DNA of 64,000 bases, taken from Chiloscyllium plagiosum (taxonomy: Eukaryota). Within the stretch, counting starts at the first letter, position 1, and every line of letters starts with the position of its first letter. The notes below the pieces were generated by a model. It saw only the letters and a list, made by a program, of their open reading frames with translations, was not told the origin of the DNA and searched no databases. A program made the position numbers and the translations under genes. Positions 1,911 through 63,018 of this stretch are shown piece after piece. The stretch is from contig NC_057718.1 of assembly GCF_004010195.1 (NCBI RefSeq), forward strand, positions 101,280,629 through 101,344,628, in the 5' to 3' direction.

Positions 1911-1938
1911 GACGTTTCGGGCAAAAGCCCTTCATCAG
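1911..1938 (-). ncRNA. Minimal type-I hammerhead ribozyme motif, intact core
   Basis: Minus strand CTGATGA-A-GGGC-TTTT-GCCC-GAAAC-GTC. Confidence 0.8.
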
Positions 1939-2337
1939 GAATAAAGGCAGAGAGCCTGAAGCGTGGAGAGATAAGCGAGAGGAGGGTGGGGGTGGTGAGA
2001 AAGTAGCATAGAGTACAATAGGTGAGTGGGGGAGGAGATGAAGGTGATAGGTCNNNNNNNNNNNNNNNNNNNNNNNNNNNNNNNNNNNNNNNNNNNNNNN
2101 NNNNNNNNNNNNNNNNNNNNNNNNNNNNNNNNNNNNNNNNNNNNNNNNNNNNNNNNNNNNNNNNNNNNNNNNNNNNNNNNNNNNNNNNNNNNNNNNNNNN
2201 NNNNNNNNNNNNNNNNNNNNNNNNNNNNNNNNNNNNNNNNNNNNNNNNNNNNNNNNNNNNNNNNNNNNNNNNNNNNNNNNNNNNNNNNNCCCTCCTCTAG
2301 CTTATCTCTCCACGTTTCAGGCTCTCTGCCTTTATTC

Positions 2338-2365
2338 CTGATGAAGGGCTTTTGCCCGAAACGTC
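2338..2365 (+). ncRNA. Minimal type-I hammerhead ribozyme motif, intact core
   Basis: CTGATGA-A-GGGC-TTTT-GCCC-GAAAC-GTC. Confidence 0.8.
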
Positions 2366-2553
2366 GATTTTGCCTGACCTCGGATGCTGCCTGAATTACT
2401 GTGCTCTTCCAGCACCACTAATCCAGAATCTGGTTTCCAGCATCTGCAGTCATTGTTTTTACCCCATTGGGTCAGAGCCAACTCTTTTAGACATCAGCTG
2501 ATTGGTCCCCTTCTCCCTCTCTCTCTACCCGGGTGTGTCCTTATATTCCCGCT

Positions 2554-2584
2554 CTGATGAAGAGTTATCTAACTCGAAACATTA
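2554..2584 (+). ncRNA. Hammerhead motif, family B (stem III palindrome mutated)
   Basis: CTGATGA-A-GAGTT-ATCT-AACTC-GAAAC-ATTA inside a PLE-type terminal fragment (about 2500-2620). Confidence 0.65.
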
Positions 2585-2621
2585 GCTTGCTGCTTGTTCA
2601 TGGATGCTGCCTGTGATCTCC

Positions 2622-2752
2622 CGGAGAGAGTGAGGACTGCAGATGCTGGAGAGTCAGAGTCGGAAAAGGTGACGCTGGAAAAGCACAGCAGGTCAGGCAT
2701 CATCCGAAGAGCAGGGGAGCTGACGTTTTGGGCATAACCCTTCATCAGGAAT
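2622..2752 (-). mobile_element. PLE terminal fragment, family A-like, hammerhead G12 mutated
   Basis: Shares actgcagatgctgg...gctggaaaagcacagcaggtcaggca...cccttcatcagga with the other copies; core reads CCCAAAAC instead of CCCGAAAC. Confidence 0.75.
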
Positions 2753-3524
2753 ATTGTGATTTCCAGCATTTTTTGTTTTCAATACGGACTCCAGCATCTC
2801 CAGTAATTTGCTTCTTTTATTTCTCCTTTGAATATTTAAGCAATACTGTTTGTTCAGGAGGTATTTCTCACCTTATTGGACGGTGCTGTCTAAATCCTGA
2901 CCACCTGCCACTTATTGTAAGCTCTCTCTCCTCTTGCCCCTGTTCTTTTTCCAATCTGTGTTGTAAATCTGTGCTCTCTGGTTACCATCCCTTTAATGTT
3001 GTAAGGCTAAAGTGGAACACTTCTCTATGTTGATCAAACCAATTTATCACATTTGACATTCACTCAACAAGTTTGAGAATCCAAAGTTGCTATCAGGCTT
3101 TTCTCTCACCCACTTGAAGTGCATGAAAGCTCTTCACCGTTTATTTGGGGACTGCAGTGCTTAATTATTTGATGTCTTGAAGATAGTGTTCCATCATCTT
3201 TTTGCATGAGTGACCATCAGGATTTACTGAGGTTCTCTATCCTGTTAATCTGATCTACTTTATCTGTAGTTTCTGAGAGTCAGGCTGTTATTTAGTGGAA
3301 CTTATCAGCTATGATCATATCACAATATCACCGTCAGCTCCGTGAGTAACACCAAAGGTCAAATGGACTAATAGAGTTCTCCTTCAAATAGTTGTGATCT
3401 GCTATTGAGTGTCCACTCAGGCATAATTGTTGTCATCATCCCTGCTGAAATAAATAGTCCCATACCACTAAAGTAAACATATGTCTCAATAGAATCGTTT
3501 GTTAAATCGATTGAGAAAAGTAAT

Positions 3525-4142
3525 CAGAAAGCACCTTGTAGATCTCCAGGCATGTCAGAGTGCCGTAAAACTGAGGAAATACTTTTGAAGTGTAGTCATT
3601 GTCATAGCATAAACATGACGGCCAATATGTACACAACAAGCTCGCACAAATCACAAAGTGACAATAATCCACTTTAGTGATATTGCTTATGGGGTAAACA
3701 TAGCCGACGACACATGGAATAAGCTCTCTTGCTCTTCATTGGAATAGTAATTTGTTTTCGCATCGAATTGTAATGTTCATCTTTTGAACTTTATTTCTTA
3801 TTTTTCTAACTTGTTCTATGAATAATTGTAAGTATTCTAACTTTTTTCCCTCTGAATTTCTCTATTTTGTATCTAAGACTTGTACCTCGATACTTGGTAC
3901 CTAAAATGGTGACATTGTAAATGTTTCGCTGTACTCCTGTACTTGAGTATCCGTGACAGTAAACCTAATTCTAAACTGAGAGGGAATCAGGGTTCTCAGT
4001 TTAATGTCTTATCTGAAAGGTTCAGTGGCAGCATTGCAGCATTCTTTCAGCACTGCGTTGGAGTATGAGCCAAAACTTTAGTGTATGATCTGAACCCATA
4101 AACATCTGATTCAGAAGCAAGAGTGCTACCTACTGAGCTGCA
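3525..4142 (-). mobile_element. Old Deu-domain SINE (SacSINE1/AmnSINE1-like), interrupted at about 3745-3975 by a probable LINE 3' UTR
   Basis: Minus strand has a tRNA-like head (gctcagtaggtagcactcttgcttctgaatcag...gggttca) and a Deu-like segment (tttgtgcgagcttgttgtgtacatattggccg...gactacacttcaaaagta); family assigned from recalled consensus. Confidence 0.55.
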
Positions 4143-5096
4143 GCTGATACTTCATGGCATATTGTTCAATATTCCACCTACCAAACCACACAAATATCTT
4201 GTGTGCAGTATTTCAGTGTCTGTATTTAGGAATGGATATGTGGAGGCCATACAGTGAAGATGGACTGAATTGCGCCCTGCCATAAAGGGGCTATCCCATG
4301 ATATCGGGCTTATATTTACTCGACTTTAGAAAAATGAAAGGCGATTTCATTGGATTTATAGGGGTCTGGATGGAATAGATGCTGAGAGATTGATTCTGTT
4401 GGTTGGAGAATCGAAAGTACAGGATCCCAGTCTCAGAATAATGGATTGATCATTTCAGACACAGAGTCATAGAGTTGCAGAGATGTACAGCATGAAAACA
4501 CACCCTACGGTCCAACTTGTCCATGCCAACCAGATATACTAAATTAATCGAGTTCCACTTGCCAGCATTTGGCCCATATCCCTCCAAACGCTTCCTGTTC
4601 ATATACCCATCCAGATGCCTTTTAAATGTTATAATTGTACCATCCTCCACCACTTCTTCTGGCAGCTCATTCCATACATGTACCACTCTCTGTGTGAAAA
4701 GGTTACCCCTTAGGTCTTTTTTATACCTTTCCCCTCTCACCCTAAACCTATGCCCTCTAATTCTGGACTCCCTGGCACCAGGGAAAAAACTTTGCCTTTT
4801 TATTCTATCCATGCCCCTCGTAATTTTGTAAACCTCTATTAGGTCGATGCTCCAGGGAAAACAGCCCCAGCCTGTTCAGCCTCTCCCTATAGCTCAAACC
4901 CTCCAATCCTGGCAACATCCTTGTAAATCTTTTCTGAACCCTTTCAAGTTTCACAACATCCTCTGGAAACCAGAATTGAATGCAGTATTCCAAAAGTGGC
5001 CTCACCAATGTCCTGTACAACTGCAACATGACCTCCCAACATCTATACTCAATGCACTGACCAATAAAGGAAAGCATACCAAACACCGCCTTCACT

Positions 5097-5229
5097 TTTA
5101 TTCCTGATGAAGGGCTTTTGCCCGAAACGTCGATTTTACTGCTCCTCGGATGCTGCCTGAACTGCTGTGCTCTTCCAGCACCACTAATCCAGAATCTGGT
5201 TTCCAGCATCTGCAGTCATTGTTTTTACC
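5097..5229 (+). mobile_element. PLE family A terminal insertion nested in CR1
   Basis: TSD accgccttcact at 5085-5096 and 5227-5238; interrupts the CR1 coding sequence. Confidence 0.9.
5104..5131 (+). ncRNA. Minimal type-I hammerhead ribozyme motif, intact core
   Basis: CTGATGA-A-GGGC-TTTT-GCCC-GAAAC-GTC. Confidence 0.8.
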
Positions 5230-7577: not shown

Positions 7578-7900
7578 CAGTGGCTCAGTGGTTAGCACTG
7601 CTGCCTCACAGCGCCAGGAACCTGGGTTTGATTTCAGCCCCGGGCGACTGTCTGTGTGGGGTTTGCACATTCTCCCCATGTCTGTATGGGCTCCAGTTTC
7701 CTCCCACAGTCCAAAGATGTGCAGGCTAGGTGGCCATCCAAAATTGCCCATAGTGTTCAGGGATGTGTGGTTTAGGTGAGTTGGCCATGGGAAGTAACGG
7801 GAATAGGATGGGGGATGGTTCTGGGTAGGATGCTCTTTGGAGGGTCAGTGTGGACTTGATGGGCTGAATAGCCTGTTTCCACATTGTAGGGAATCTATGA
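7578..7900 (+). mobile_element. HE1-type SINE
   Basis: tRNA-like head (gtggctcagtggttagcactgctgcctcacagcgccagg), V-SINE-type core (gtttgcacattctcccc...ccaaagatgtgcagg), CR1-like tail (cctgtttccacattgta). Confidence 0.85.
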
Positions 7901-8731: not shown

Positions 8732-8865
8732 AGGTAAAAACAATGACTGCAGATGCTGGAAACCAGATTCTGGATTAGTGGTGCTGGAAGAGCACAGCAA
8801 TTCAGGCAGCATCCGAGGAGCAGCGAAATTGACGTTTCGGGCAAAAGCCCTTCATCAGGAATAAA
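8732..8865 (-). mobile_element. PLE family A terminal insertion
   Basis: TSD aaatgggaggt at 8725-8735 and 8863-8873; near-identical to the reverse complement of 5097-5229. Confidence 0.9.
8831..8858 (-). ncRNA. Minimal type-I hammerhead ribozyme motif, intact core
   Basis: Minus strand CTGATGA-A-GGGC-TTTT-GCCC-GAAAC-GTC. Confidence 0.78.
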
Positions 8866-9085
8866 TGGGAGGTGTCAGCCCCTTGTGAGGGGAACTTTCC
8901 TTTTCCCTATTTCAGTTTGATATCTGGGGCCAAGACAAGGGGATTCCAGGTATCAGCCTCACTGCTACTAACCTGCAGGGTCTGTAACCAATCATGTTGA
9001 AGTATCGTCACAGACAGCAAACTTGAACCGAATCTTCCACTTAAGATGAAAATTCTTCAGAGAGCAAAAGGAACCATTGGGAAAG

Positions 9086-9397
9086 GAATGTGAAATTAAG
9101 CAAGAAATGCAAACGCAAACCTGTAGAAAGGTTTTTTTCCAAAGAAAAAGTTTTAAATCATGAGGAAATTTGACTGTGTTAAAATCCAAACTCCAACTAT
9201 CCGCAATCATCAGATAGTTGGAGTTTGGATTTTAACACAGTGCCAAAGTATAAATTACTGCTGAGAAACTTACCCCACCTTGAAAACATTCAGTTTATAT
9301 TTGTGGACGTCAAATTTCCTCATGATTTAAAACTTTTTCTTTGGAAAAAAACCTTTCTACAGGTTTGCGTTTGCATTTCTTGCTTAATTTCACATTC
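9086..9397. repeat. Foldback inverted duplication of unique sequence
   Basis: 9086-9201 is the reverse complement of 9213-9241 plus 9311-9397; 11-nt spacer; the same peptide appears in ORFs 8992..9210(-) and 9225..9440(+). Confidence 0.9.
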
Positions 9398-9461
9398 GGT
9401 GCGGACTTGTTGGGCCGAAGGGCCTGTTTCCACACTGTAAGTAATCTAATTATCTAATCTA
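9398..9461 (+). mobile_element. HE1 SINE 3' tail, heavily 5'-truncated
   Basis: ggacttgttgggccgaagggcctgtttccacactgtaagtaatctaa matches the ends of the young HE1 copies. Confidence 0.85.
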
Positions 9462-11164: not shown

Positions 11165-11298
11165 AAATAAAACTGAAGAAACTGCGGTTGCTGTAAATCA
11201 GAAACAAGAACAGAAATTGCTAGAAAAGCTCAGCTTCTGGCAGCATTTGTGGAGAGAAATCAGGAGTTAACATTTCAGGTCGAGTGACCCTTCCCCAG
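11165..11298 (-). mobile_element. Older PLE terminal fragment, family D, with decayed hammerhead
   Basis: Minus strand ctggggaagggtcactcgacctgaaatgttaactc; related copies at about 13435-13530, 15780-15900, 31140-31215, 33585-33775, 34455-34660, 40345-40460, 40963-41045 and 47200-47410. Confidence 0.7.
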
Positions 11299-11620
11299 AG
11301 GATTAGAAGGATTATAAAATTGAATAAATGACCAGACTCGATGGGCTGAATGGCCTACTTCTGTTTCTGTGTCTAATATTGTACAATTCTGCCACCAGCC
11401 GTAACAAACCGAACAAGCTCCTTCACCAGAGCTGTTCACAATGGGACACTTGATTGCTCTTCGATTTGGGACTCCTGACTGGTAAAGTTGAAAGTATTGT
11501 GCTGGAAAAGCACAGCAGGTCAGGCAGCATCTGACGAGCAGGAGAGTCGACGTTTCAGGCATAAACCCTTAATCTACCTGACTGGTAGAGTCATCAGAAT
11601 TCTGTATGGATTACCTTACA
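11294..11620 (+). repeat. Copy 1 of a local duplication (copy 2 at 13198-13420); carries a PLE insertion at about 11485-11577
   Basis: Shared cagaggattagaaggattata...tctaatattgtacaattctgccaccagcc...tcgatttgggactcctg; TSD cctgactggta flanks the insertion. Confidence 0.85.
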
Positions 11621-12940: not shown

Positions 12941-14621
12941 CCAGAACAGTAAATTTTAAATAGCAGCGTCATTTCTTAAAATATTCATGGTTTAATTCAG
13001 TCGTTGTGTTGATTCAACACTGGGAATGAAAACAAAACAGCAAAAGTTCATTATTATTTGTTGTGTTGTTCAGGTGAAGGGAGCAACAGTGTCCCCACGA
13101 ATAGTTAGGCAAAAGTAAGGACTACAGATGCTGGAAATCAGAGTCTAGATTAGAGTGGTGCTGAAAAAGCACAGCAGGTCAGGCAGCAGAGGGTGATCCC
13201 CAGAGGATTAGAAGGATTATATTAAGGGTTATAAAATTGACTATATGACTAGACTCGATGGGCTGTTCCTGTGTCTAATATTGTACAATTCTGCCACCAG
13301 CCATAACAAACTGAACAAGCTCCTTCAACTAGAGCTGTTCACAATGGGACACGTTTGCTTTTCGATTTGGGACTCCTGTCTGGTAAAGCCATCGGAAATC
13401 TGTACGAATTACTTTACAGAACTCAGGGAAGGGATCTGAGGAAGGGTCACTACACCCGGAATGTTAACTCTGATTTCTGTCCACAATTGCTGCCAGACCT
13501 GCTGAGCTTTTCTAGCAATGTCTGGTTTTATTCATGTAAACGGTATTCCGCTTTTGCGGTATTCCTTGTATGGCGTGTTTCCTTCAGGAAGTATCTGGTT
13601 AGAGGGCATCTTAAGCGTCTCTGGAATGGTGTAGATTGGATCGTGGATCCAGCCCTGAGTTGGACTGGTTGCAAAATGACATTGAAACTTGTGATGTTAA
13701 GCGAGAGTGCAGGCTTCATTAAATACTGATGTTGAACGCAACAACATGAAACTGGGCAGCAAGAAATGGAACTTACTGTGCTGCTTCCAGGTCAAAGGTC
13801 GCAGAAATATGCAATTGTAATTGGCTGTAATCCAGTCGTGAGAATTGTATTATAGTTTTTAATCAGGAAATATGATTACCGGCATATACTTCCTCAGCTG
13901 AAATGACAGCTGGGACAATTTATTGGGAGTTTAATGATAATTGCCTTCAGGCAAAAATGCAAAGGATAATCCATCAGAAACATGGTTAAGTTGATTTACA
14001 GTTGTGGATTTTTTTTGCTGGAGTGATTCGCTTTACTGTACGTGTTTAGTAATCCATCGCCCTCTGCAATGCTGAGTTTACAAAACTGCTGTCAAAGATC
14101 TTTGAAAATCTCAAATACAGCCCTCCCATTCACTAATTTCTTTTTGATTGGTTTTGAGCGCTGGTAGATCTATTGCCGATTTACTGTTTAAAAGATTAAA
14201 GTCACATCACTGTGTGGAAATTGGTAATTGGCAAAAGAAAACCTGCACGAGCAAGTTTAACAGCGCAGATCTGTCATTATTTCATTTGAGAAGAAATAAG
14301 TGTGATTCCACACACATCAATGGGTTCTTAATTCAGGCCTTTTCATTCTGTTTAGCAGAACAGAAAGTAAGTTATATCCACCAGTCACTGGGCCCTGTAA
14401 ACTCAATGGCCTAATCAACATTTTTCAAGAAAAGGCAGAGGATTGAACTGTTTGTTCTTTTCCCTTCTCATAAAAGAGAAAAAGAATGAGGGTATCGATT
14501 TAAAGTTTTGTCCAAAAGAAGCAAGGCTTATGTGAGCAAAAAACTTTCCACACAGCGAGTAGTTGGAATCTGGAAATGCGCTGCTTGGAAATGTGGTGGA
14601 GATCGGTTCAATTGGGGTATT

Positions 14622-17250: not shown

Positions 17251-17287
17251 TGCTAACTTCTATAAACCAGATAACCCGGTGCCACCA

Positions 17288-18220: not shown

Positions 18221-18425
18221 GAGGAGAAAGTGAGGGCTGCAGATGCTGGAGATCAGAGCTGAAAATGTGTTGCTGGAAAAGTGCAGCAGGTCAGGCAGCA
18301 TCCAAGGAGCAGGAGAATCGAAATTTCGGACATTCCTGAAGAAGGGCTTATGCCCGAAACGTCGATTCTCCTGTTCCTTGGATGCTGCCTGACCTGCTGC
18401 GCTTTTCCAGCAACACATTTTCAGC
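18221..18425. mobile_element. PLE hairpin element nested in an HE1 fragment
   Basis: Inverted arms gctgaaaatgtgttgctgg / ccagcaacacattttcagc; flanking duplication ccgtgctaaa. Confidence 0.85.
18336..18363 (+). ncRNA. Minimal type-I hammerhead ribozyme motif, intact core (CUGAAGA)
   Basis: CTGAAGA-A-GGGC-TTAT-GCCC-GAAAC-GTC. Confidence 0.8.
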
Positions 18426-20978: not shown

Positions 20979-21013
20979 CTTAATTAATTCTCGTTAGATA
21001 GATCTACTGAAGA

Positions 21014-21208
21014 GTTGAAAATGTGTTGCTGGAGAAGCGCAGCAGGTCAGGCAGCATCCAGGGAACAGGAGAATCGACGTTTCGGGCATAAGCCCTTCTT
21101 CATTCCTGATTCTCCTGTTCCCTGGATGCTGCCTGACCTGCTGCGCTTCTCCAGCAACACATTTTCAGCTCTGATCTCCAGCATCTGCAGACCTCACTTT
21201 CTCCTCAA
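21014..21208. mobile_element. PLE hairpin element
   Basis: Near-perfect inverted arms; 14-bp TSD agatctactgaaga at 21000-21013 and 21209-21222; minus-strand hammerhead truncated at C3. Confidence 0.9.
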
Positions 21209-24027: not shown

Positions 24028-24570
24028 AGAGTCACAGAGATGTACAGCACGGCAACAGACTCTTTGGTCCAACTTGTCCATGCCGACCAGATATCCTAAA
24101 TTAATCTAGTCCCATTTGCCAGCATTTGGCCCAATTCCCTCTATACCCTTCCTATTCAGATACCCATCCAGATGCCTTTTAAATGTTGTCAATTGTCCCC
24201 CTGATGTGGAGATGCCGGTGTTGGACTCGGGTGGACAAAGTTAAAGATCACACAACACCAGGTTATAGTCCAACAGGTTTAATTGGAAGCACTAACTTTC
24301 GGAGTGACGCTCCTTCATCAGGTGGTTGATCAACCATCTAATGAAGGAGCAGCGCTCCAAAAGCTAGTGCTTCCAAATAAACCTATTGGACTATAACCTG
24401 ATGTGTGATTTTTAACTTTTAAGTGTTGTAATTGTACCAGCCTCCGCCACTTCCTCTGGCAGCTCATTCCATACACGCACCACCCTCTGTGTGAAACATT
24501 TGCCCCTTAGGTCCTTTTCACATCTTTCCCTTCTCACCCTAAATCTCTAGTTTTGGACTCCTCCACCCTT
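24028..24570 (-). mobile_element. CR1 LINE 3' fragment containing a PLE family C hairpin (about 24202-24419)
   Basis: CR1 sequence resumes after a duplicated ttttaa(a/g)tgttgt..aattgt; minus-strand hammerhead CTGATGA-A-GGAGC-GTC-ACTCC-GAAAGTTA at 24293-24321. Confidence 0.85.
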
Positions 24571-29478: not shown

Positions 29479-29506
29479 GACGTTTCGGGCAAAAGCCCTT
29501 CATCAG
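29479..29506 (-). ncRNA. Minimal type-I hammerhead ribozyme motif, intact core
   Basis: Minus strand CTGATGA-A-GGGC-TTTT-GCCC-GAAAC-GTC. Confidence 0.8.
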
Positions 29507-30265
29507 GAATAAAGGCAGAGAGCCTGAAGCATGGAGAGATAAGCTAGAGGAGGGTGGGGGTGGGGAGAAAGTAGCACAGAGTACAATGGGCGAGTGGGGG
29601 AGAGGATGAAGGTGATAGGTCAAGGAGGAGAGGGTGGAGTGAATAGGTGGAAAGCTCCTTTAGGGCCTTGGATAGAGGTGAGGGAGGAGGTGTGGGCGCA
29701 GGTTAGACGCGAGGAGGTTGAGCAATTCATCCCGCGAGGAGGTTGAGCAATTCATGATGACTGCATTGGCGCCACCTCGTGCTCCCGCGAGGAGGTTGAG
29801 CAATTCATACCGGCACCACTCCCCACCTCTTCCTCCGCTACATTGATGACTGCATTGGCGCCACCTTGTGCTCCCGCGAGGAGGTTGAGCAATTCATCAA
29901 CCTCCCTCACCTCTATCGAAGGCCCTAAAGGAGCCTTCCACATCCATCAAAGTTTTACTTGCTCATCCACTAATATCATTTATTGTATCCGTTGCTCCCA
30001 ATGCGGTCTCCTCTACATTGGGGAGAGTAGGTGCCTCCTAGCAGAATGCTTTAGGGAACATCTCCGAGACACCCGCACCAATCAACCAAACCGCCCCGTG
30101 GCCAACATTTCAACTCCCCCTCCCACTCTGCCAAGGANNNNNNNNNNNNNNNNNNNNNNNNNNNNNNNNNNNNNNNNNNNNNNNNNNNNNNNNNNNNNNN
30201 NNNNNNNNNNNNNNNNNNNNNNNNNNNNNNNNNNNNNNNNNNNNNNNNNNNNACTGCCTTTATTC

Positions 30266-30293
30266 CTGATGAAGGGCTTTTGCCCGAAACGTC
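30266..30293 (+). ncRNA. Minimal type-I hammerhead ribozyme motif, intact core
   Basis: CTGATGA-A-GGGC-TTTT-GCCC-GAAAC-GTC, downstream of the GIY-YIG coding fragment. Confidence 0.82.
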
Positions 30294-30408: not shown

Positions 30409-30629
30409 TAGGTGAAAGTGAGGATTGCAGATGCTGGAGATCAGAGTCAAGATTAGAGTGGTGCTGGAAAAGCACAGCAGGTCAGGCTACATCCGAGGCG
30501 CAGGAAAATTGATGTTTTGGGCAAAAGCCCTTCATCAGGAAATGATGAAGGGCTTTTGCCCAAAATGTCGATTTTCCTGCCCCTCGGATGCTGCCTGACC
30601 GGCTGTGCTTTTCCAGCACCACTCTAATC
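30409..30629. mobile_element. PLE hairpin element, both hammerheads mutated
   Basis: Inverted arms gattagagtggtgctggaaaagcacagc / gctgtgcttttccagcaccactctaatc; both cores read CCCAAAA. Confidence 0.85.
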
Positions 30630-32275: not shown

Positions 32276-32346
32276 GTATTGGTGGTTCAGTGGTGGAATT
32301 CTCGCCTCCCACACGAGAAGCCAGGCTTCGATTCCCGGCCAATGCA
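32276..32346 (+). pseudogene. tRNA-Gly(CCC) pseudogene
   Basis: 71 nt GTATTGGTGGTTCAGTGGTGGAATTCTCGCCTCCCACACGAGAAGCCAGGCTTCGATTCCCGGCCAATGCA follows vertebrate tRNA-Gly; anticodon CCC; mismatches in the anticodon and T stems and an altered B box. Confidence 0.85.
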
Positions 32347-33198: not shown

Positions 33199-36100
33199 CT
33201 AATTGTTCTGATGAACTTTTGAAGGCTGATATTGAGTTAAATTCCCCTCACTTTGGGAAGACAATGGTCTAGTGGTATTATTGCCTGACTTAGTTAATCC
33301 AGACACCCAGGAAATGTTCTGGGGACCCAGGATCAAATGGTAGTGTTTGAATTCAATTTTAAAAATATAATGCCCTTTAGATTTACGGAAGAAGGCTGCA
33401 GTCACTTATCAGAGTAAGCACGTGCTAACCTCATCGCTCCACTCCACTTTATCCTCATATGGGTTGTGATTGTTGGAGGGACAGGTCAGGCTGAATGAAA
33501 AAATTGTGCCTTCAGGAACCCTCTATACAAATTGATGTTAACACCTGCTGGAGTCCAATTTGTGAGACCTTAGCTAAAATTAGAGAACACTGGTGAAACT
33601 CAGCAGATCTGACAGCACCTGTAGAGGGAAAGCAGAATTAACGATTCAGGTCCGTGACCCTTCTTCACGGCTGAAGTTAACTGATGCGCTTTCTCTCCAC
33701 AGATGCTGCCAGACCTACTGAGTTTCTCTAACATTCCTTGTGTTTGTTTCAGATTTCCACTGTATCTTGCTTTTATTATTGCGAGATATTAACCTTGTTA
33801 AATGTGTCTCTGTAGTTGTGCCACCTTACTTGGCAGTATTCCATTCACCCTTGCCCTGAACCAAATCTCAAAGCCTTATGTGGATTAAAATTGCCAGAAA
33901 TTTCAATCTGTTCTATGTGCTTCCTTTTCAAAGCATGTTCCTCCTTACCTAATATATATCTAATGTAGTGTTCTGCAGTGTTATAGCGATGTGCTAATAA
34001 ATAAGAATGTTGTATTAATTGGTCATTCACACACTACATTGCAAGGTGAATGAACCCGGTACATTTCCACATAGCCTTACCTACGTTTGCAGCTTTTCAT
34101 ACTCTCAATCCTGCATTTATCAAAGAAAAATCAAATTTAAAGCAATTGAATGCCCTAATCTAGGTCCAATTCTCATCCTTTTCAACCCACCTGTCGCCTG
34201 CTCTTTGGCACTCGCTTCAGAGTGATGTTGATTTGCTACAACTACAGTTTAATGAATTCTGAAAGGGCTGTTAAACTCAATGTTAACCGTCTGTAGGCTT
34301 TGCCAGATGGGGCGGTTGGTGCTCGAGGAGTTGCCAGGGTTACCTCTGCATGCTCCTGGCAACGTTCTCTTGATGTAAGAATTAGGAACAGGAGTAGGCA
34401 ATTCTGCCCCTCAAGCCTGCACCAACATTTAATACAATTGTGGCTGATCTCAATAAAATCTGAAAGAACTGCGGATTCTGCAAATCCGAAAGAAAAACAG
34501 AAATTCCTGGAAAAGCTCTGGCAGCATCCATGGAGAGAAATCAGAGTCAACGCTTCAGGTCCAGTTCTAAGGAAGGGTCATTGGACCCAAAATGTTAACT
34601 CCGAGTTCTCGCCACAGACGCTGCCAGACCTGCTGAGCTTTTCCAGCAACTTCTGTTTTCATTTATGGCTTATCTCATCTCAACCTCAACTCCACTCTCC
34701 TGCCCTCACACCATAACCCTTCAACCAGTTACGAATTAAAAATCCGTCTGTCTCCTCTCTAAATTTATTCAGTTTTCCGGTGTTCACTACGCTCTGGGAT
34801 CGTGGATTCCACAGATTCAGGACCCTTTGAGGAAGTAATTCATCCTCAACTCTATTTTAAATCTGCCATTGCTTCTCCTAAATTTACAGATGTAGAGATG
34901 TTGAAGGAGTGAGCAGGGAAATGGAGTTGAAGCCGAGATAGATCAGCCATGATCGTATTAAATATAGCAGGCTTGAGTGGCCTACTCCTGCTCTTACCTC
35001 TTATGTTCTTATAATGAAAACTGATGATAATGAAAGCTATGTTGGTGCACTTTGGTGCAACTATATTGTACAAAAGCAATCACAACTCATATTTATGTCG
35101 CGGTATAACATCGGAAAACATCCCAATGCGTTTTACCAGGTTGTCAACAACCAGAATTTGACATTGAGCCACAGAAGAAGATATAAGGTTAATTAACTGG
35201 AAGCTTAGTCAAAAAGATAGGTGTTAAGAAGAAGTTAAGTAACAGAGAGTGTGAGAGAAAAACGGGCAAATGGGGAGCTTTAAAAACTGAGAAAGGGAAT
35301 TCCTGAACTTTGGCACTAAGAAATGCCAATAATTAAAAATGTTTAACAAATGGTAGCTGTTAATTACACATCAGAAAAATATACTTGCATTTATAACTTT
35401 TTTCCCAACATACTTAGAATGATTAGATCAATTCTTGACTCCATTAGTATGTGACTCCAGTAAGCAGCCTTAATCTAACCCTACATTAAAATGTTGATTT
35501 GTTCACTCCAGTGAAGAGCTTGCATGAAGTATTCATTATAGTCCTCCTGATTAAACAAGTTCATGAAATGTTCTTTCTATTTATTTAATAACTGACAGTA
35601 AATTGCGAAGCAGATTTGTGTCTTTTTCCCCAGCTCAGAATTGACAAAACTTTCTGAATTTGAGACCACATTCCCAACACAGAATACAAATAGAGAAAGG
35701 GCTCTTTCGTTGATGGCGGACAATTTTTGAAGTTTTAGTTCATGTAAGTGAGCTTGAAACCACACCCGGCCCTGTTTCAGCCCTCTTTTTGTTGGAATCT
35801 GTGACCCTAATTTCATGGTTTAAGCACCATTGCCAGCACCATATGAACCAAGTGCTTCCCTATACTTTAGCTCATTTATCATTTACCACAAGGACTGGGT
35901 TCATGTTGAGACAGGTATCTTGAAGTTTATTAACAATATCATTGACAATGCTATAATGTCTCAGACTGAAACATTGTCTGGGTTCTATGCCTACTGATTA
36001 TGTAGCTTAATGATACAGGAAGTGCGAGCAGGATACCATTCCTGTTACGGCTGAAGGCGTTTCTGGGGCTTTATACTGGAATGTTACATGTCGTGCTGTC

Positions 36101-37159: not shown

Positions 37160-37352
37160 CCAGAAGTCACACGACACCAGTTTATGATCCAACAGGCTTC
37201 TTTGAATCCACAAGCCTTCTGTGCTTTCGTCATCTGATGAAGGGGCAGCGCTCCGAAAGCTTGTGATTTCAAAAAAACCTGTTGGACCATAAACTGGTAT
37301 CATGTTACTTCTGACTTTGTCTACCCCAGTCCAACACCAGCACGCCCACATC
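37160..37352. mobile_element. PLE family C hairpin element
   Basis: Inverted cagaagtcacacgacaccagtttat / ataaactggtatcatgttacttctg arms. Confidence 0.8.
37234..37262 (+). ncRNA. Minimal hammerhead ribozyme motif, family C, intact core
   Basis: CTGATGA-A-GGGGC-AGC-GCTCC-GAAAG-CTT (AGCT palindrome). Confidence 0.75.
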
Positions 37353-45238: not shown

Positions 45239-45265
45239 CTTAAAATGCAGTGGGTTGCTCCTGAT

Positions 45266-45704
45266 TTTGGATGTAGGTTTGCTCGCTGAGTTGGAAGGTT
45301 CATTTCCTGATGTTTCGTTACCTTACTAGGTAACATCTTCAGTGGGCCTCATGCGAAGCAATGCTGGAAATTCCTGCTTTCTATTTATATGTGTGGGTTT
45401 CTTTGGGTTGGTAATGTTATTTCCTGTGGTGAAATCACTTCCTGTTCCTTTTCTCAGGGCGTGGTAGATGGGGTCTAACTCAATGTGTTTGTTGACAGAG
45501 TTCCAGTTGGAATGCCATGCTTCTAGGAATTCTCGTGTGTGTGTCTTTGTTTGGCAGGAACTTTCAGCATTGCTTCGCCTGAGGCCCACTGAAGATGTTA
45601 CCTAGTAGGGTGACAAAACATCTGGAAATGAACCTTCCAGCTCCCTGAGCAAAACTACATCCAAAACCACAACCTGAGGAACAAATCTTCTCAAAACTCG
45701 CTCA
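45266..45704. mobile_element. Penelope-like element, family E, with inverted arms and endonuclease C-terminus
   Basis: 12-bp TSD gttgctcctgat at 45254-45265 and 45705-45716; minus ORF REFLEAWHSNWNSVNKHIELDPIY resembles the C-terminus of PLE GIY-YIG proteins. Confidence 0.88.
45309..45342 (-). ncRNA. Hammerhead motif, family E
   Basis: Minus strand CTGAAGA-T-GTTACC-TAGTAA-GGTAAC-GAAAC-ATC; the mirror copy at 45589-45622 has G12 mutated. Confidence 0.7.
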
Positions 45705-52661: not shown

Positions 52662-53255
52662 GTGTGGTGCTGGAAATGCACAGCAGGTCAGGCGGCATCT
52701 GAGGAGCAGGAGAATCGATGTTTCAGGCATGAGCCCTTCATCAGGAATGAGGCTTGTGGGCCAAGGGGACTGAGAGATAAATGGAAGGGACAGTGGGGCT
52801 GGAGGAGGCCCTGGACCTGCATGTTCTTGATGGAGTGGGAGGAGGAGTTGCAGTGTTCGGCCACAGGGCAGTGGGGTTATTTAGTGCGTGTGTCCCAGAG
52901 ATGTTCTCTGAAATGTTCCTCAAGTTGGCGTCCTGTCTCCCCAATGTGGAGGAGACCACTTTGGGAGCAGCAGACACAGTGAATGACATATGTGGAAGTA
53001 CAGATCATCTGTCGGGTGTGGAATGATCCTTTTGGGCATTGGGCAGCGGTAATGGGGAAGGTATGGGTGCAGGTTTTGCACTTCTTGCAGTGGCATGGAA
53101 AGGTGCTGGAGTGGGTAACCACACGGCATCAATGTGGATTTCCCCATTTCCCCTCCCGCCACCTTATCCCAGTCCCAAATTCCTAACTTGGCACCGTCCT
53201 CTTGAACTCTCCTACCGGTCCATCTTCCTTCCCACCAATCCGCTCCACCCTCCTA
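52662..53255 (-). mobile_element. Decayed Penelope-like element with Cys-rich linker and GIY-YIG fragment
   Basis: ORF 52877..53122 CHCKKCKTCTH...PKGSFH...CTSTYVIHCVCCSQSGLLHIGETGRQLEEHFREHL, homologous to 29900-30110; decayed hammerhead at about 52717-52744. Confidence 0.88.
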
Positions 53256-53259
53256 GGCT

Positions 53260-53365
53260 TCACACACACAGTCACAGATACACAAGCACATGCACACACA
53301 CTCACACAGACACACATGCTCACACACGCACACACATGCTCACACACACGGACACACACACACAC
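53260..53365 (+). repeat. Imperfect (CA)n microsatellite
   Basis: Visible CA dinucleotide run. Confidence 0.9.
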
Positions 53366-55097: not shown

Positions 55098-55114
55098 ATA
55101 GCCATTTGTAAGCT

Positions 55115-55250
55115 TTGCTGATGAAGGGCTTATGCCCGAAATGTCAATTCTCCTGCTCTTCAGATGCTGCCTAACCTGCTGTGTTTTTCCAGCACCATAC
55201 TTATCGACTCTGATCTCCAGCATCTGCAGTCCTGACTTTCTCCTCGTTGA
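55115..55250 (+). mobile_element. PLE terminal insertion with near-intact hammerhead (55118-55145)
   Basis: TSD atagcc(a/c)tttgtaagct at 55098-55114 and 55253-55269; CTGATGA-A-GGGC-TTAT-GCCC-GAAATGTC. Confidence 0.85.
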
Positions 55251-55534
55251 TTATAGCCCTTTGTAAGCTGCACTGTGCCCCAACGATTGATCAATGGCAA
55301 CTGGTCCCATTATGCATCAAGTGCAAAGTCAACCTCTTTGGCCAGAACCACACTACCAGTTACTGGGACTGGAAGAATCCATCAGCTGGAGCTGGAGGGT
55401 TGTGGGTGGTGGGGGAAGTGGGGCTTGTCACTGAGAAAGCTGAGGTGGTGACCTGATCAAGTACTTTCAGATTGTGAGCGGCTTTGAAAAGATGGATATT
55501 TCGAAGATGTTTAGGAAAGGTGTTTATGTAACAG

Positions 55535-56737
55535 GCAAGAACTTTCAAAAGCTGATTGGGGGCAGATGCTCGCAGGTAAAGGGCCGGCTGGAAAATGGGA
55601 AGCCTTTAGAAATGAGATAACGAGAGTACAGATTACGGTACATTCCTGTTAGGGTGAAAGGAAAGGCTGGTAGGTGTTGGGAAGGCTGGATGATGAAAGA
55701 AATTAAGGGTTTGATTATGAAAAAGAAGGAAGCATATGTAAGGTATAGACAGGAGAGAGCGAGTGAATCCTTAGAAAAGTATAAAGGCAGTAGGAGTATA
55801 CTAAAGTGGGAAATCAAGAGGGCAAAAAGGGAGCATGAGATAGCTTTGGCAAAAATAGTTAAGGAGAATCCGAAGGGATTTTAAAAATACATGAAGGACA
55901 AAAGGGTAATGAGGGAGAGAATAGGGCCCCTCAAAGATCAGCAAAATGGCCTTTGTGTGGAACCGCAAGGGTTGGGAGACGCTCTAAATGAGTGTTTTGC
56001 ACCAGTGTTTACTGTGAAGAAGGATATGGAAGATATAGAATGTGTAGAAATATATGGTGACATCTTGAAAAATGTCCATAATACAGAGGAGGAAGTGCTG
56101 GATGTCTTGAAATGCAAAAAGTGGATAAATCCCCAGGACCTGATCAGGTGTACACTAAAACTCTGTGGGAAGCTAGGGAAGTGATTGCTGGGCCTCTTGC
56201 TGAGATATTTGTATCATCAATAATCACAGGTAAGGTGCCTGAAGACTAGATGTTGGCTAGTGTGGTGCCACTGTTTAAGAAGGGTGACAAGGACAAGCCA
56301 GGGAACTGTAGACCCGTAAGCCTGACATCGGTGGTGGGCAAGTTGTTGGAGGGAATCCTGTGTGACAGGGCTTACATGTACTTGGAAAGGTAAGGACTGA
56401 TTATGGATAGCCAACTTGGCTTTGTGCATGGGAAATCATGTCTCTTGAACTTGATTGAGTTTTTTGAAGAAGTAATGTAGAAGATTGATGAGGCCAGAGT
56501 GATGGATGTGATCTATGTGAACTTCAGTAGGGCATTCGGCAAGATTCCTTATGGGAGACTAGTTAGCAACGTTAGATCTCATGGAATACAGGGAGAACTA
56601 GCCATTTGGATAGAGAACTGGCTCAAAAGTAGAAGACAGAGGGTGGTGGTGGAGGGTTGTTTTTCAGTCTGGAGGCCTGTGACCAGTGGAGTGCCACAAG
56701 GATCGGTGCTGGGTCCTCTAGTTTTCATCATTTATAT
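55535..56737 (+). mobile_element. CR1 LINE ORF2 reverse-transcriptase region, disrupted
   Basis: [48 protein letters not shown]; stops and frameshifts. Confidence 0.93.
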
Positions 56738-57282
56738 AGAGTCATAGAGATGTACACCATGGAAACAGACCCTTCAGTCCAACCCGTCCATGCTGACCAG
56801 ATATCCCAACCCAATCTAGTCCCACCTGCCAGCACCCGGCCCATATCCCTCCAAACCCTTCCTATTCATATACCCATCCAAATACCTCTTAAATGTTGCA
56901 ATTGTACCAGCCTNNNNNNNNNNNNNNNNNNNNNNNNNNNNNNNNNNNNNNNNNNNNNNNNNNNNNNNNNNNNNNNNNNNNNNNNNNNNNNNCAATATTC
57001 CAACAGTGGCCTAACCAATGTCCTGTACAGCCACAACATGACCTCCCAACTCCTGTACTCAATACTCTGACCAATAAAGGAAAGCATACCAAACGTCTAC
57101 TTCACTATCCTATCTACCTGCAACTCCATTTTCAAGGAGCTATGAACCTGCACTCCAAGGTCTCTTTGTTCAGCAACACTCCCTAGGACCTTACCATTAA
57201 GTGTATAAGTCCTGCTGATTATTTGTTTTTCCAAAGTGCAGCACCTCGCATTTCTCTAAATTAAACTCCATCTACCACTCCT
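56738..57282 (-). mobile_element. CR1 LINE 3' part, inverted (N gap 56914-56992)
   Basis: MLSFIGQSIEYRSWEVMLWLYRTLVRPLLEY; 3' tail at 56738. Confidence 0.9.
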
Positions 57283-57645
57283 ATAAAATCATGAGGGGCA
57301 TGGATAGGATAAATAGACAAGGTCTTTTCCCAGGGGTGGGGGAGTCCAGAACTTGAAGGCATAAGTTTAGGGTGAGAGGGGAAAGATATAAAAGAAACCT
57401 AAGGGGCAACGTTTTCACTCAGAGGGTGGTATATGTATCGAATGAGCTGCCAGAGGAAGTGGTGGAGGCTGGTACAATTGCGGCATTTAAGAGGCATTTG
57501 GATGGGTATATGAATAGGAAGGGTTTGGAGGGATATGAGCCGGGTGCTGGCAGGTGGGACTAGATTAGGTTGGGATATCTGGTCGGCATGGATGAGTTGG
57601 ACCGAAGGGTCTGTTTCCGTGCTGTACATCTCTATGACTCTGTGA
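57283..57645 (+). mobile_element. CR1 LINE 3' part
   Basis: ORF 57372..57563 FTQRVVYVSNELPEEVVEAGTI; ctctatga tail. Confidence 0.9.
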
Positions 57646-59519: not shown

Positions 59520-60069
59520 AGAGACAAAATAAAACTGCAGATGCTGGAATCCAAAGTAGACAGACAGGAGGCTGGAAGAACACAGCAAGGCAGGCAGCAT
59601 CAGCAGGCTGGGGGAGCACAGCAAGGCAGGCAGCATCAGGAGGCTGGGGGAACACAGCAAGGCAGGCAGCATCAGCAGGCTGGGGGAGCACAGCAAGGCA
59701 GGCAGCATCAGCAGGCTGGAAGAACACAGCAAGGCTGGCAGCATCAGGAGACTGGGAGAACACAGCAAGGCAGGCAGTATCAGGAGGCTGGGGGAACACA
59801 GCAAGGCAGGCAGTATCAGGAAGCTGGGGGAACACAGCAAGGCAGGCAGTATCAGGAGGCTGGGAGAACACAGCAAGGCAGGCAGCATCAGGAGGCTGGG
59901 AGAACACAGCAAGGCAGGCAGCATCAGGAGGTGGAGAAGAAATCAATGTTTCGGGAGTAACCCCCCTTCATGTCCTGAACAAGGGTTACACCTGAAACGT
60001 TGACTTCTCTACCTCCCGACGCTGCCTGGCTTGCTGCCTTGTTCCGGCCTCCTGTCTGTACTTTGGATC
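59520..60069. mobile_element. PLE hairpin element with an internally expanded left arm
   Basis: aaaactgcagatgctggaatccaaagtagacag... left arm; inverted right arm at about 59972-60069 with decayed core ctgaacaagggttacacctgaaacgttg. Confidence 0.8.
59565..59931 (+). repeat. 36-bp minisatellite, 10 units plus 7 nt
   Basis: Unit caggaggctgggagaacacagcaaggcaggcagcat repeated head-to-tail. Confidence 0.95.
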
Positions 60070-60726
60070 TGATTCATTGACATCCTTTAGAGTCTCTGAT
60101 TGGCTCTTAACAGTACTGGCAAGCCACTCAGTTCAGGGGCAGTTAGGGACATGTGACAAATGCTGCCATTGCTGGTGATGCCCTCATCCCATGAAAAGAT
60201 CAAGAAGAAGGATTGGGGGGGGGCGGGGGGGTGGGGGGGTGTGCGTGTGGAGTGGGTGTGGTTGTGGTGGTGCTGAGGGGTGGCTAGTTGTTGTACGGCT
60301 GTGCCACTCTCTGTCTCATTGCCCCCCTGACTGCAGCTCAGCCCCTCGGGCAGCTTGGCCAAAGGGGAGGACAGCGTCAATCCGTTCCAGTAAAACCAAG
60401 TACATCTCACCAGTTTATAAACTTCTTCCGCTCTTGAAATCTTCCTTTTGAGCAGGCTTGTGGGAATTCCATTCCTCAGTCTGCCGCCAAAGAGCTGGCA
60501 GCAATACCATCAGCGTAGCGTTCCCCGTTCCCCTCTGCTGTTCCACCTCCTGCTGTCCTCCGCGAGGTGTCCCAAGGCTCCTTCTGATAAGATGCTGAAG
60601 CTTCTTCAGAGTAATTCAAAGCAGCACGAGTGCTTTTGGAAACGTTCTGACGTGGAAAGGTGATACATCAACACAAATCTTACTTACTGGGTCGCAATGC
60701 AGTACAGAACCTGTCAGAGTTATTGG

Positions 60727-60906
60727 GCAAAGTTAAAAATCATGCAACACCAGGTTATAGTCCAACAGATTTATTGGGAAGCACTAGCTTTCAGAGCGCT
60801 GCTCCTTCATCAGGTGGTTGTGGAGCAGAATCATAAGACATAGACTTTATAGCAAAAGGATTGCAGTGTAATGGAATGTAATATTAAACACCGGCACCTC
60901 CAAATC
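60727..60906 (-). mobile_element. PLE family C element
   Basis: caaagttaaaaatcatgcaacaccaggttatagtcc arm plus an inverted tail aacaccggcacctccaaatca. Confidence 0.8.
60785..60813 (-). ncRNA. Minimal hammerhead ribozyme motif, family C
   Basis: Minus strand CTGATGA-A-GGAGC-AGC-GCTCT-GAAAG-CTA. Confidence 0.7.
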
Positions 60907-61402
60907 AAGACTTCTTGGGGTGAGTCTTGCAGCTGTTTGACACCAGGACAGCAAAGTGCTGCTTCATTTTCTCCAACTGCTTTGCCATCGGTGGTCTCTG
61001 GATGGTAGCCTCCAGCGCTGGTAAACTTGCAGAAGCTGTCCGACTGCAAGAACCTGAAGGAGGGTCACTGGATTCAAAACATGAACTCTCTCCACAGAAT
61101 CTAGCCATGATGTGGAGATGGTGGTGTTGAACAGACGTGGACAAGGTCTGAAGTCACACAACACCAGGTTATAGTCCAGCAGGTTCATTTGAAATCACAA
61201 GCTTTCGGAGCACTGCTCCTTTGCCTGACGTAAGCGCTCAGAAAGCTTGTGATTTTAAATAAACAATGCACAAAGAAAATTACAGCACCAGAACAGGCTC
61301 ATTGGCCGTCCAAGCCTGCACCGATCCAGATTCTCTATCTAAACCTGTCGCTTATTTTCTAAGGATCTGTATCGCTCTACTCCCTGCCCATTCATGTATC
61401 TG

Positions 61403-61584
61403 GATTAGTGGTGCTGGCAGAGCACGGCAGTTCAGGCAGCATCCAAGGAGCAGCGAAATCGACGTTTCGGGCAAAAGCCCTTCATCAGGAATAAAGGCAG
61501 AGAGCCTGAAGTGTGGAGAGATAACCTAGAGGAGGGTGGGGGTGGGGAGAAAGTAGCCAGCATCTGCAGTCATTGTTTTTACCT
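61403..61584 (-). mobile_element. PLE family A insertion nested in CR1
   Basis: TSD cattcatgtatctg at 61389-61402 and 61585-61598; long minus arm plus a short inverted tail. Confidence 0.9.
61461..61488 (-). ncRNA. Minimal type-I hammerhead ribozyme motif, intact core
   Basis: Minus strand CTGATGA-A-GGGC-TTTT-GCCC-GAAAC-GTC. Confidence 0.8.
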
Positions 61585-62611
61585 CATTCATGTATCTGTC
61601 TAGATACATCGTAAATGACGCTATGGTGCCCGCCTCCACCACCTCTGCTGGCAATGCGTTCCAGTCCCCCACCACCCTCTGCGTAAAGAGTTTTCCATGC
61701 ATATCTCCCCTAAACATTTCACCTCTCACTTTGAACTCGTGACCCCTAGTAATTGAGTCCCCCATTCTGGGGAAAAAGCTTCTTGCTGTCCACCCTGTCT
61801 ATATCTCCCATGATTTTGTAGACCTCAATCAGGTCCCCCCTCAACCTCCGTCTTTCTAATGAAAATAATCCTAATCTACTCAACCTCTCCTCATAGCTAG
61901 CGCCCTCCATACCAGGCAACATCCTAGTGAACCTCCTCTGCACCCTCTCCAAAGCATCCACATCCTTTTGGTGATGTGGTGACCAGAAGTGTACGCAGTA
62001 TTCCAAATGCAGCTGAACTAAAGTCCTATACAACTGTAACATGACCTGCCAACTCTTGTAATCAATACCCTGTCCAATGAAGGAAAGCATGGCGTATGCC
62101 TTCTTGACCACTTTACTGACCTACATTGGCACTTTCAGGAAACAATGGACCTGAACACCCAGATCTCTCTGTACATCAATTTTCTCCAGCACTTTTCCAT
62201 TTGCAGTATAGTTGGCTATTGAATTGGATCTTCCAAAATACATCACTTCGCTTTTGCCCGGATTGAACTCCATCTGCCATTTCTCTGCCCATCTCTCCAG
62301 TCTATCTATATTCTGCTGTCGGGAGTTGGACTATAACCTGATGTCATGTGACTTCTGACTTGGTCCATGCATGCTGGTACACCTGCTGAGTTTCTCCAGC
62401 AATTCCTCTTTCCTTTCAAATCTCCACCATCCACTGTTCTTTGTTTTATTTAAGTGTATTTGTCTTTGGGGGCACAGGTGATATCAAAGAACTGAACATT
62501 ACTGTAATCGAAGTGCACGTAGGAACTGCAAGAGTATATATAAGGGCTTTCTAAAGTTGGGAGCAGGACCTATAAGTGAGGTCATGAGCTACAACCTTGG
62601 GGTCTTGAATT

Positions 62612-63018
62612 CTGTTGAAACTTTATTGCTGGAACAGCACAGCAGGTCAGGCAGCATCCAGGGAACAGGAGATTCGACGTTTCGGGCACAGGCCCTTCTT
62701 CAGGAATGAGCAGAGAGTGTTCAGCAGGAGAAGATAAAAGGTAGGGAGGAGGGACTTGGAGGAGGGGCGTTGGAAATGTGATAGGTGGAAAGAGGTCAAG
62801 GTGAGGGTGATAGGTCGGAGTAGGATGGAGGCGGAGAGGTCAAGAAGAAGACTGCAGGTCAGGAAGGCGGTGCCGGGCTGGAGGGATCCGGCTGAGACAA
62901 GGTGGGGGGAGGGGGGATGAAGAAACTGGTGAAGTCCAAGTTCATCCCCTGCGGTTGGAGGGTTCCCAGTCGGAAGATAAGACGCTCCTCCTCCGACCGT
63001 CGGGTTGTTGTGGTTTGA
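62612..63018 (-). mobile_element. Penelope-like element 3' part with endonuclease C-terminus
   Basis: Minus strand translates RSEEERLIFRLGTLQPQGMNLDFTSF, followed by a pyrimidine-rich UTR and the hammerhead; CpGs retained. Confidence 0.88.
62676..62703 (-). ncRNA. Minimal type-I hammerhead ribozyme motif, intact core
   Basis: Minus strand CTGAAGA-A-GGGC-CTGT-GCCC-GAAAC-GTC. Confidence 0.8.

Follow-up and report, generated by a model that had tools for sequence, protein, structure and literature searches.

Minimal hammerhead motifs and the ends of Penelope-like element copies in a 64-kb stretch of the Chiloscyllium plagiosum genome

Hammerhead cores and coding remnants in the window

The window, a stretch of 64,000 nucleotides from the shark Chiloscyllium plagiosum, contains leftovers of Penelope-like elements (PLEs) that measure 90–250 bases, together with hammerhead cores and endonuclease remnants (Table 1). 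An earlier note on this DNA had suggested a hammerhead-descriptor search. Such a scan (CTGANGA, 0–1 extra base, stem II of at least four pairs, GAAA; dinucleotide shuffles as control) detected 16 exact cores in the window and none in 15 of 15 shuffles, and the motif is therefore real. Cores with at most one mismatch numbered 28, compared with 1–5 per shuffle, and those with at most two mismatches 76, compared with 22–34.

Table 1. Cores, element copies and coding remnants in the window
Feature	Position	Strand	Remarks
Family C head-to-head pair	1178..1372	.	long + short arm; 12-base flanking repeat; decayed core at 1288
A1 exact core	1911..1938	-	pairs inversely with 2338 across N gap 2054-2289
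A1 exact core	2338..2365	+	descriptor scan; other arm of inverted pair with 1911
Family B exact core	2554..2583	+	palindrome decayed to ACAT
Solo A1 stub	5097..5229	+	start 7 bases before C3; core 5104-5131; long tail; 12-base flanking direct repeat
Solo A1 stub	8732..8865	-	core 8831-8858; 11-base flanking repeat; stem I closing pair broken
Family D copy	11209..11299	-	1-mismatch core at 11298; start 1 base before C3; tail continues below 11209
Family D copy	13435..13530	+	decayed core at 13436
A2 head-to-head pair	18223..18425	.	exact core 18336-18363 on +; 10-base flanking repeat
A2 head-to-head pair	21011..21204	.	+ arm begins at cut site after short junction; 14-base flanking repeat
Family C head-to-head pair	24202..24422	.	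both arms begin 7 bases before C3; exact core 24321 (-)
A1 exact core	29479..29506	-	copy reaches 147 bases upstream
Rearranged RT (YIDD) + GIY-YIG remnant	29747..30136	+	upstream of core 30266; Pfam GIY-YIG E 0.062, below cut-off
A1 exact core	30266..30293	+	preceded by N gap 30138-30252
Family A head-to-head pair	30446..30622	.	decayed cores 30538 (-), 30542 (+)
Family D head-to-head pair	34456..34660	.	decayed core at 34567
Family C exact core	37234..37262	+	AGCT palindrome, CUU triplet, 5-pair stem I
Family E (Poseidon-type) head-to-head pair	45265..45702	.	cores 45342 (-), 45589 (+); 12-base flanking repeat
GIY-YIG C-terminal remnant in family E pair	about 45450-45550	-	motif reading
Family A copy	52691..53128	-	Cys-rich linker + GIY-YIG remnant, then core 52744, palindrome decayed
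A2 stub	55115..55242	+	exact core at 55118; stem III decayed
Sixth variant F	59565..60060	.	head-to-head decayed cores 59971 (-), 59975 (+)
Variant F tail segment, 36 bases, amplified 10.4 times	59565-59938	.	repeat within F locus
Family C exact core	60785..60813	-	CUA triplet; G.U at 10.1-11.1
A1 exact core	61461..61488	-	copy reaches 69 bases upstream
Young A3 copy	62610..63010	-	endonuclease C-terminus, 3' UTR, exact core 62676-62703 (4-bp stem I), short tail

All 11 cores that the earlier note called intact exist, its minus-strand coordinates being the low ends (C3 of the minus-strand cores lies at 1938, 8858, 29506, 60813, 61488 and 62703). Two of them need qualification: at 8858 the closing pair of stem I is broken, and 60813 has a G.U at 10.1–11.1. 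The extra nucleotide after A9 is present in 16 of 16 exact cores. ACGT and AGCT are indeed the majority palindromes of the families, but in the exact cores at 2554 (family B) and 45342 (family E) the palindrome has decayed to ACAT. Only the core at 62703 among the nine family A cores of the window has an uninterrupted 4-bp stem I, and the descriptor scan found no exact core in any family D copy of the window. The Rfam hammerhead models returned no hammerhead family among 16 window matches at E values up to 5. Microrna-like Rfam matches, all below cut-off, fall in several cases on head-to-head pairs.

The core is also the majority form among copies located by their tail only. The majority forms of all seven groups combine G10.1–C11.1 with a loopless palindromic 15–16 (ACGT in A1–A3, B, D and E; AGCT in C), the D majority having G.U at 10.1–11.1. 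Helix I is short: its first three pairs are Watson–Crick in 19 of 21, A1 and A2 carry U.U at pair 3, and the closing pair changes in a compensatory manner between families (C-G, T-A or A-T). In the commonest subfamilies stem I has just 2+1 pairs. Core letters are mutated in 2.5–5% (non-CpG) and 11–45% (CpG) of tail-found copies, and the dispersed copies are likely dead and decaying. Without a stem III the ribozyme monomer is predicted to be inactive; cleavage would occur only as a dimer, for example in tandem read-through RNA, and would probably be protein-assisted. Dimer cleavage of such variants has been described (Lunse et al. 2017, as cited in PMC6765202). The lowest-energy folds computed for our sequences are not the active hammerhead dimer, a calculation that is uninformative for cores with non-canonical pairs.

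The four GIY-YIG remnants reported earlier are all present upstream of cores on the same strand, three in family A and one in family E. In longer copies, GIY-YIG-type motifs precede the cores of all five families A–E, separated from the core by an insertion in D; the Pfam GIY-YIG scores of the remnants (E 0.0037–0.062) are below cut-off. The CX2-5CxxC linker of Neptune elements lies between reverse transcriptase (RT) and endonuclease in A (52880–53128) and B (locus L161). It is absent from E copies, which fits Penelope/Poseidon, and none was seen for C or D. Each subfamily was found attached to coding remnants too. A full-length element with an intact RT–endonuclease frame between two terminal repeats was sought in 17 stretches, which contained only fragments and deleted units. 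Of the 105 long frames of the window, one matches Pfam, as an RT, and the other 104 match nothing there.

Genome-wide, we counted about 95,500 exact cores, 87,506 of them from family A. The "window-wide system" of the earlier note is thus not specific to the window, although with nine family A cores the window exceeds both the expected 1.6 per 64 kb and the 0–4 in neighbouring 64-kb bins. Strands are balanced across the genome (43,730 versus 43,776 for family A). The "at least five families" reduce to about three lineages, because A, B, D and the sixth variant F have a common tail, with C and E separate; from their sequences, A, B, D and F look like sub-lineages of one Neptune-type group. A PLE origin, the minimal type-I architecture and a shark-like host are all supported.

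Ends of the copies

Core-blind, tail-based mapping of 464 kb (the window plus 200 kb on each side) yielded 249 copies. The window holds 54 of these, and since 27 of the 54 extend to C3, the earlier count of more than 25 short insertions holds. In the 464 kb, 94 of 142 copies that extend to position 0 have their 5' end at -9 to 0 relative to C3. The end rate there is 0.10 per base, about ten times the background rate, as compared to 0.003–0.012 further away and 0.023–0.026 in the two adjoining bins. Similar rates were obtained for solo copies (0.076), inverted copies (0.136) and copies of at least 90% identity (0.094). When ends were distributed uniformly in a simulation, the bin rose only from 16 to 24. 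The 3' ends fall into two groups, about 55–65 and 90–104 bases past the cut site; for E the distances are about 43 and 80. The stubs have no flanking sequence in common.

Several other causes of the pile-up were considered and rejected. A hidden subfamily does not account for it, as 38 of 44 solo pile-up copies are without an upstream match and the other six read as missed inverted arms. As to a splice acceptor, B and D do have pyrimidines and CAG at the boundary, but A has no AG, and no common upstream exon was found. An endonuclease preference for ATT is rejected because ATT is missing at this point in B, C and D and does not terminate the flanking repeats of pairs. For the common tail itself, a structure is unsupported (four pairs, no compensatory change, -0.98 kcal/mol).

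The base preceding A(-4) is often a G. Among the first 100 listed cases of each group in which it is not the genomic C, we counted G55 A32 T13 for A2/A3 and G48 A24 T28 for D. Composition predicts about 27 G, and the control position C3 gave G15 A54 T31, with a bias towards A from fold-back junctions. In solo copies the extra G usually lies inside the target duplication and is therefore evidence for a cap only via a microhomology argument. Among the 30 loci that were read, the 10 inverted ones all carry the G as well, and there it may derive from the other arm. In family C, which lacks an A at -4, the ends lie at -2/-3 and between -7 and -9; those of family E are mostly far upstream (15 copies). 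The -4 boundary coincides with the 5' edge of stem I, a position that an end defined by structure or protein would fit equally. In the parts of the PLE literature that we searched, we found no description of a fixed 5' boundary or of a non-genomic G.

Head-to-head pairs consist of one long and one short arm in 49 of 56 cases (about 28 expected); the inverted truncated copy and one-sided tail of PLE insertions are both present. Flanking repeats of 8–15 bases enclose 29 of the 56 pairs but only 1 of 56 controls. The window contains no tandem core array; a few loci elsewhere have one (L203–L205), and tandem dimers with a 355–409-base period and internally deleted units exist outside the window. 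In rarer copies the tail continues into a common open frame (L210, L215, L216 and L217). L210 and L214 start at the 5' edge of the core, and contigs from sequencing runs X15 and X9 contain joints from this tail-linked frame back to -4/-5.

Templates of the short copies

With moderate confidence, we conclude that the copies are 5'-truncated PLEs of Neptune and Poseidon type, flanked by target duplications, and that most of them are likely run-off cDNAs from the 5' end of a capped, uncleaved mRNA. Transcription of the element would start at about -4, and most copies begin just before the motif likely because the capped RNA starts there. The PLE protein would bind the tail near the 5' end of its own mRNA, start reverse transcription internally and run off the cap after 90–130 bases. 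Priming on both nicked target strands would give head-to-head pairs, and template jumps the rarer tandem and internally deleted units. Frangieh et al. (2024, PMC11167929) report for the Anolis Poseidon element PAc that two internal RT start sites match the tail, that both strands are extended, and that RNA which has not been processed is the main template. Run X22 gave no reads. Reads from RNA run X21, a poor test as poly(A) single-cell data, map to both strands, 97% of them continue into unlike sequence, and they reveal no site where many molecules begin or end. In the Penelope element of D. virilis, transcription starts 46 bases plus a 75-base intron upstream of the intron end that maps to helix I, and so not at -4.

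The boundary could also be set by the ribozyme fold or a bound protein, with RT stopping, or 5'-3' decay halting, at the stem I edge of a longer RNA. We consider this unlikely, even though its position tracks the 5' strand of stem I, at -4 in A, B and D and at -3 in C, and the anole hammerhead is described as protein-assisted (PMC11167929). By the time RT came to this edge, stem II and the 3' strand of stem I would already be open, stem I has only 2+1 pairs in the commonest subfamilies, and the G excess in two families of differing sequence would go unexplained.

The earlier note held that the families "spread mostly as 130–250 bp non-coding units", which implies non-autonomous, SINE- or retrozyme-like ribozyme elements with their own RNA cycle. 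The huge copy number, the tandem dimers and deleted units elsewhere, the near-complete loss of upstream sequence in family D and the retrozymes reported for one chondrichthyan (bioRxiv 10.64898/2026.07.22.740005) would suit such elements. We nevertheless find them improbable: the window has no tandem core array, the stubs have no common flanks, a cleavage–ligation circle would not stop at -4, and every subfamily is also joined to coding remnants. The short copies do not look self-propagating, because their fixed 5' end matches mRNA run-off and the tail runs into an open frame in rarer copies elsewhere.

It is very unlikely that ribozyme-cleaved RNA was the template. Eight ends do fall exactly at the cut site, compared with 0–3 at neighbouring positions, but one is a locus-edge artefact, six of the other seven are inverted junctions explained by stem I or GA microhomology, and most copies retain the entire core upstream of the cut. 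Equally implausible is a system used by the host, such as pairwise cleavage of host pre-mRNA: copies occur in RNA reads and the ACGU palindrome common to four of five families could in principle pair, but the cores decay after insertion, genomic strands are balanced, the predicted lowest-energy folds are not hammerhead dimers, and the long frames of the window, a single RT match aside, are without Pfam matches.

Returning to run-off from capped mRNA, we tentatively put forward a more specific scheme. The stubs, in tens of thousands of copies, may document a strong-stop step of Penelope transposition. The capped mRNA would start four bases before the hammerhead, and an RT dimer would prime both target strands from the two internal sites, copy through the cap, and then either fuse the two short cDNAs or switch template. 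Only where two copies come together could the ribozyme then decapitate the mRNA; it would serve as a tandem-sensing switch and not as a template maker.

Relation to known elements

The motif is that of the minimal hammerheads of PLEs, a class described in 2014 (Cervera and De la Pena 2014, PMC4209133). In the portions of that paper we consulted, these share with the shark motifs the type I core, the extra base between 9 and 10.1, G10.1–C11.1, the palindromic 15–16 and the short helix I, as well as several consensus families per genome and mostly single truncated copies with some opposite-strand pairs. Stem II of the shark motifs has just 4–7 pairs, and the same portions include no shark and no mapping of insertion ends. 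Counts of about 4,000 (coelacanth) and 9,000 (Xenopus) compare with about 95,500 exact cores here, by differing methods.

Anolis PAc resembles our elements in that its hammerhead lies at the ORF start or immediately before it, and in the two RT start sites that bound the tail (PMC11167929). In contrast to PAc, the shark copies mostly belong to the Neptune type, and the sections consulted mention neither a fixed 5' boundary nor a G excess nor target duplications of 8–15 bases. Strong 5' truncation, an adjacent inverted copy, the Cys linker in Neptune and a 30–40-base tail, often at one end only, appear in what we saw of Craig et al. 2021 (PMC8557442), whereas both shark arms are the same 90–130-base segment with the same 5' point and 49 of 56 pairs are one-tailed. 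Non-LTR retrozymes (bioRxiv 10.64898/2026.07.22.740005) are also PLE-derived, non-coding, type I and found in a chondrichthyan, but are tandem arrays by definition, whereas copies in the window are solo or head-to-head.

Since the motif class was already described, the copy number is the unusual part, and the value of these copies is mechanistic. PMC8557442 states that it is unclear what PLE hammerheads do, and PMC11167929 that the steps following priming are unvalidated. The geometry of the ends argues for uncleaved RNA as the in vivo template, predicts the transcription start to single-base precision, and connects the one-sided tail with two priming events within one insertion.

Hammerhead cores and their families

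A descriptor scan of the 64-kb window returned 16 exact hammerhead cores, 28 cores when one mismatch was allowed and 76 when two were, while shuffled-sequence controls gave 0, 1–5 and 22–34, respectively. All 11 cores and all four GIY-YIG remnants listed in the earlier note lie where it placed them, and the extra base that it described after A9 is present in 16 of 16 exact cores. Its designation of the cores as intact is right as to their presence but not as to full pairing: the closing pair of stem I is broken in core 8858, core 60813 carries a G·U at 10.1–11.1, and stem I is interrupted in 8 of the 9 family A cores. Searches with Rfam models gave no hammerhead match for the window cores.

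The exact pattern of family A occurs 87,506 times in the 3.56-Gb genome of the shark itself, followed by those of families C (5,358), E (1,409), D (848) and B (409); reversed-pattern controls gave 0. Hammerhead-bearing copies of Penelope-like elements (PLEs) are real and very abundant. The window holds 9 exact A cores, compared with 0–4 in adjoining 64-kb bins and a genome mean of 1.6, and 54 copies found by the tail, the conserved segment downstream of the cut site, versus 195 across the 400 kb on its two sides. The repeat belongs to the genome as a whole, with the window somewhat richer in it than average, and is not a system of the window alone. A young stretch of variant A3 is also present under three other species labels.

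Families A, B, D and a sixth variant, F, have one tail in common. Across seven groups the palindrome is ACGT or AGCT, and the first three pairs of stem I are Watson–Crick in 19 of 21 cases, with three different closing pairs. GIY-YIG-type sequence lies 5′ of the core in longer copies of families B (L155, L161, L170), E (L137, L149, L150) and C (L110), and also in family D, where another insertion stands between (L081). Pfam matched GIY-YIG in 2 of 12 fragments, both below the cut-off (E 0.0037 and 0.062). One homologue was found for remnant 52880–53128, an uncharacterised bamboo shark protein (63% identity) with a weak GIY-YIG match of its own. The Cys linker, given for Neptune in the accessible part of PMC8557442, is found here in A and B and is absent from E.

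The core is the majority sequence even among copies located without using it. In these, 2.5–5% of non-CpG and 11–45% of CpG core positions are mutated, a lower bound because alignment to −2 was required of copies. Selection has thus been at work in source elements but not in their copies.

In the accessible parts of PMC4209133, every structural feature listed in the earlier note is already described. No sharks were found in the text or supplement searched, and the accessible part of a preprint on non-LTR retrozymes (bioRxiv 10.64898/2026.07.22.740005) covers one chondrichthyan.

Ends of the copies

Copies were located by the tail alone and mapped at both ends (333 matches, 328 aligned, 698 kb); end rates were computed on the 249 copies of a contiguous 464 kb, the window with 200 kb on each side. 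The 3′ ends form two classes, ~55–65 and 90–104 bases past the cut site, or 43 and 80 bases past it in family E, and this bimodality matches the tail given in the accessible part of PMC11167929.

The 5′ ends are concentrated 0–9 bases upstream of C3, the first core base, where 94 of 142 copies at risk terminate. The rate in this bin is 0.10 per base, versus 0.003–0.012 elsewhere and 0.023–0.026 in the adjoining bins. With uniform ends simulated on 251 copies, the pile-up bin rose from 16 to 24 only. Family D references have short upstream parts; the long-reference families alone still give 0.088. Eight copies start precisely at the cut site; six of these starts are junctions of inverted copies, and one is an artefact of the locus edge. 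In the literature searched, which included part of the supplements, no publication describing a strong stop of this kind at hammerheads was found.

Head-to-head pairs and rearranged copies

Head-to-head pairs number 56 and account for 112 of the 249 copies. One long and one short arm occur in 49 of them (~28 expected), and direct repeats of 8–15 bases surround 29 (control, 1). These two features identify each pair as a single insertion event.

In rarer copies the tail runs on into a shared open frame; some of these begin at the 5′ edge of the core and continue into a second unit beginning there again. Families C and E form tandem dimers with a 355–409-base period outside the window, and no full-length element was found among 17 stretches.

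Rearranged copies and other elements (L numbers, stretches of the same genome outside the window; other positions, window)
Location	Strand	Observation	Reading
21103–21108		junction in head-to-head pair	reads as exact core removal between two GA dinucleotides
29660–29930		scrambled PLE RT fragment	YIDD region repeated as several short duplications, some direct and some inverted
59565–59938		36-base unit, 10.4 times, in one head-to-head arm	from variant F conserved tail segment
12123–12217; L039		chimeric stubs: 5′ part of one family, core or tail of another	suggest template switches between families
L130 ~2600–2700	−	two family A cores in direct tandem, ~45 bases apart	candidate double hammerhead in cis
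L206 2300–3560; L217 1–1400		internally deleted A1 units, ORF start joined to 3′ UTR between two cores	retrozyme-like
7569, 14617, 16928, 18526, 32353, 40478, 49658, 49819		abundant tRNA-headed short repeat; also inverted copies	presumably resembles shark HE1 SINE
32276–32346		tRNA-like match, 39.4 bits (Rfam gathering score 29)	probably pseudogene or SINE head
4466, 16020, 24023, 56733		LINE-like 3′ ends	
56481–56744		RVT_1 match, E 9.4e-7	just under cut-off
L208 ~8840–9310	−	cysteine-rich open frame	may be host exon with frizzled-type domain

A possible route of insertion

The base preceding A(−4), the A four bases 5′ of C3, was tallied by hand in copies where it is not C. Variants A2/A3 gave G55 A32 T13 (first 100 of 10,282) and family D gave G48 A24 T28 (first 100 of 2,038 such copies); the control position C3 gave G15 A54 T31 (first 100 of 2,815). 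Among 30 loci read, all 10 inverted copies have G, and the 20 solo copies have G10 A6 T4. In solo copies with a duplication this G is mostly target-derived, the target overlapping the element start by 1–4 bases. A cap-templated C at the cDNA end would select targets with such a G. In families A and D, A(−4) stands in a pyrimidine-A-N-W-pyrimidine context, which we take to resemble the initiator consensus; family C shows no fit to this context at −4. That the 5′ boundary is instead set by structure or protein is the main alternative, and we consider it unlikely.

We favour, with some confidence, a route in which the element mRNA would begin at about −4 and the protein would prime internally near its 5′ end, running off after 90–130 bases; priming on both nicked strands would yield the head-to-head pairs. 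Reads from a poly(A) single-cell RNA run (X21) map to both strands and are embedded in other sequence, with no start or end visible; the run speaks neither for nor against this route. As to ribozyme activity, the accessible part of PMC4209133 gives monomers as inactive and dimers as weak, and that of bioRxiv 10.64898/2026.07.22.740005 reports one active Xenopus dimer out of nine. The main interest lies in the end geometry of the copies, through which the transposition cycle of PLEs becomes open to testing.
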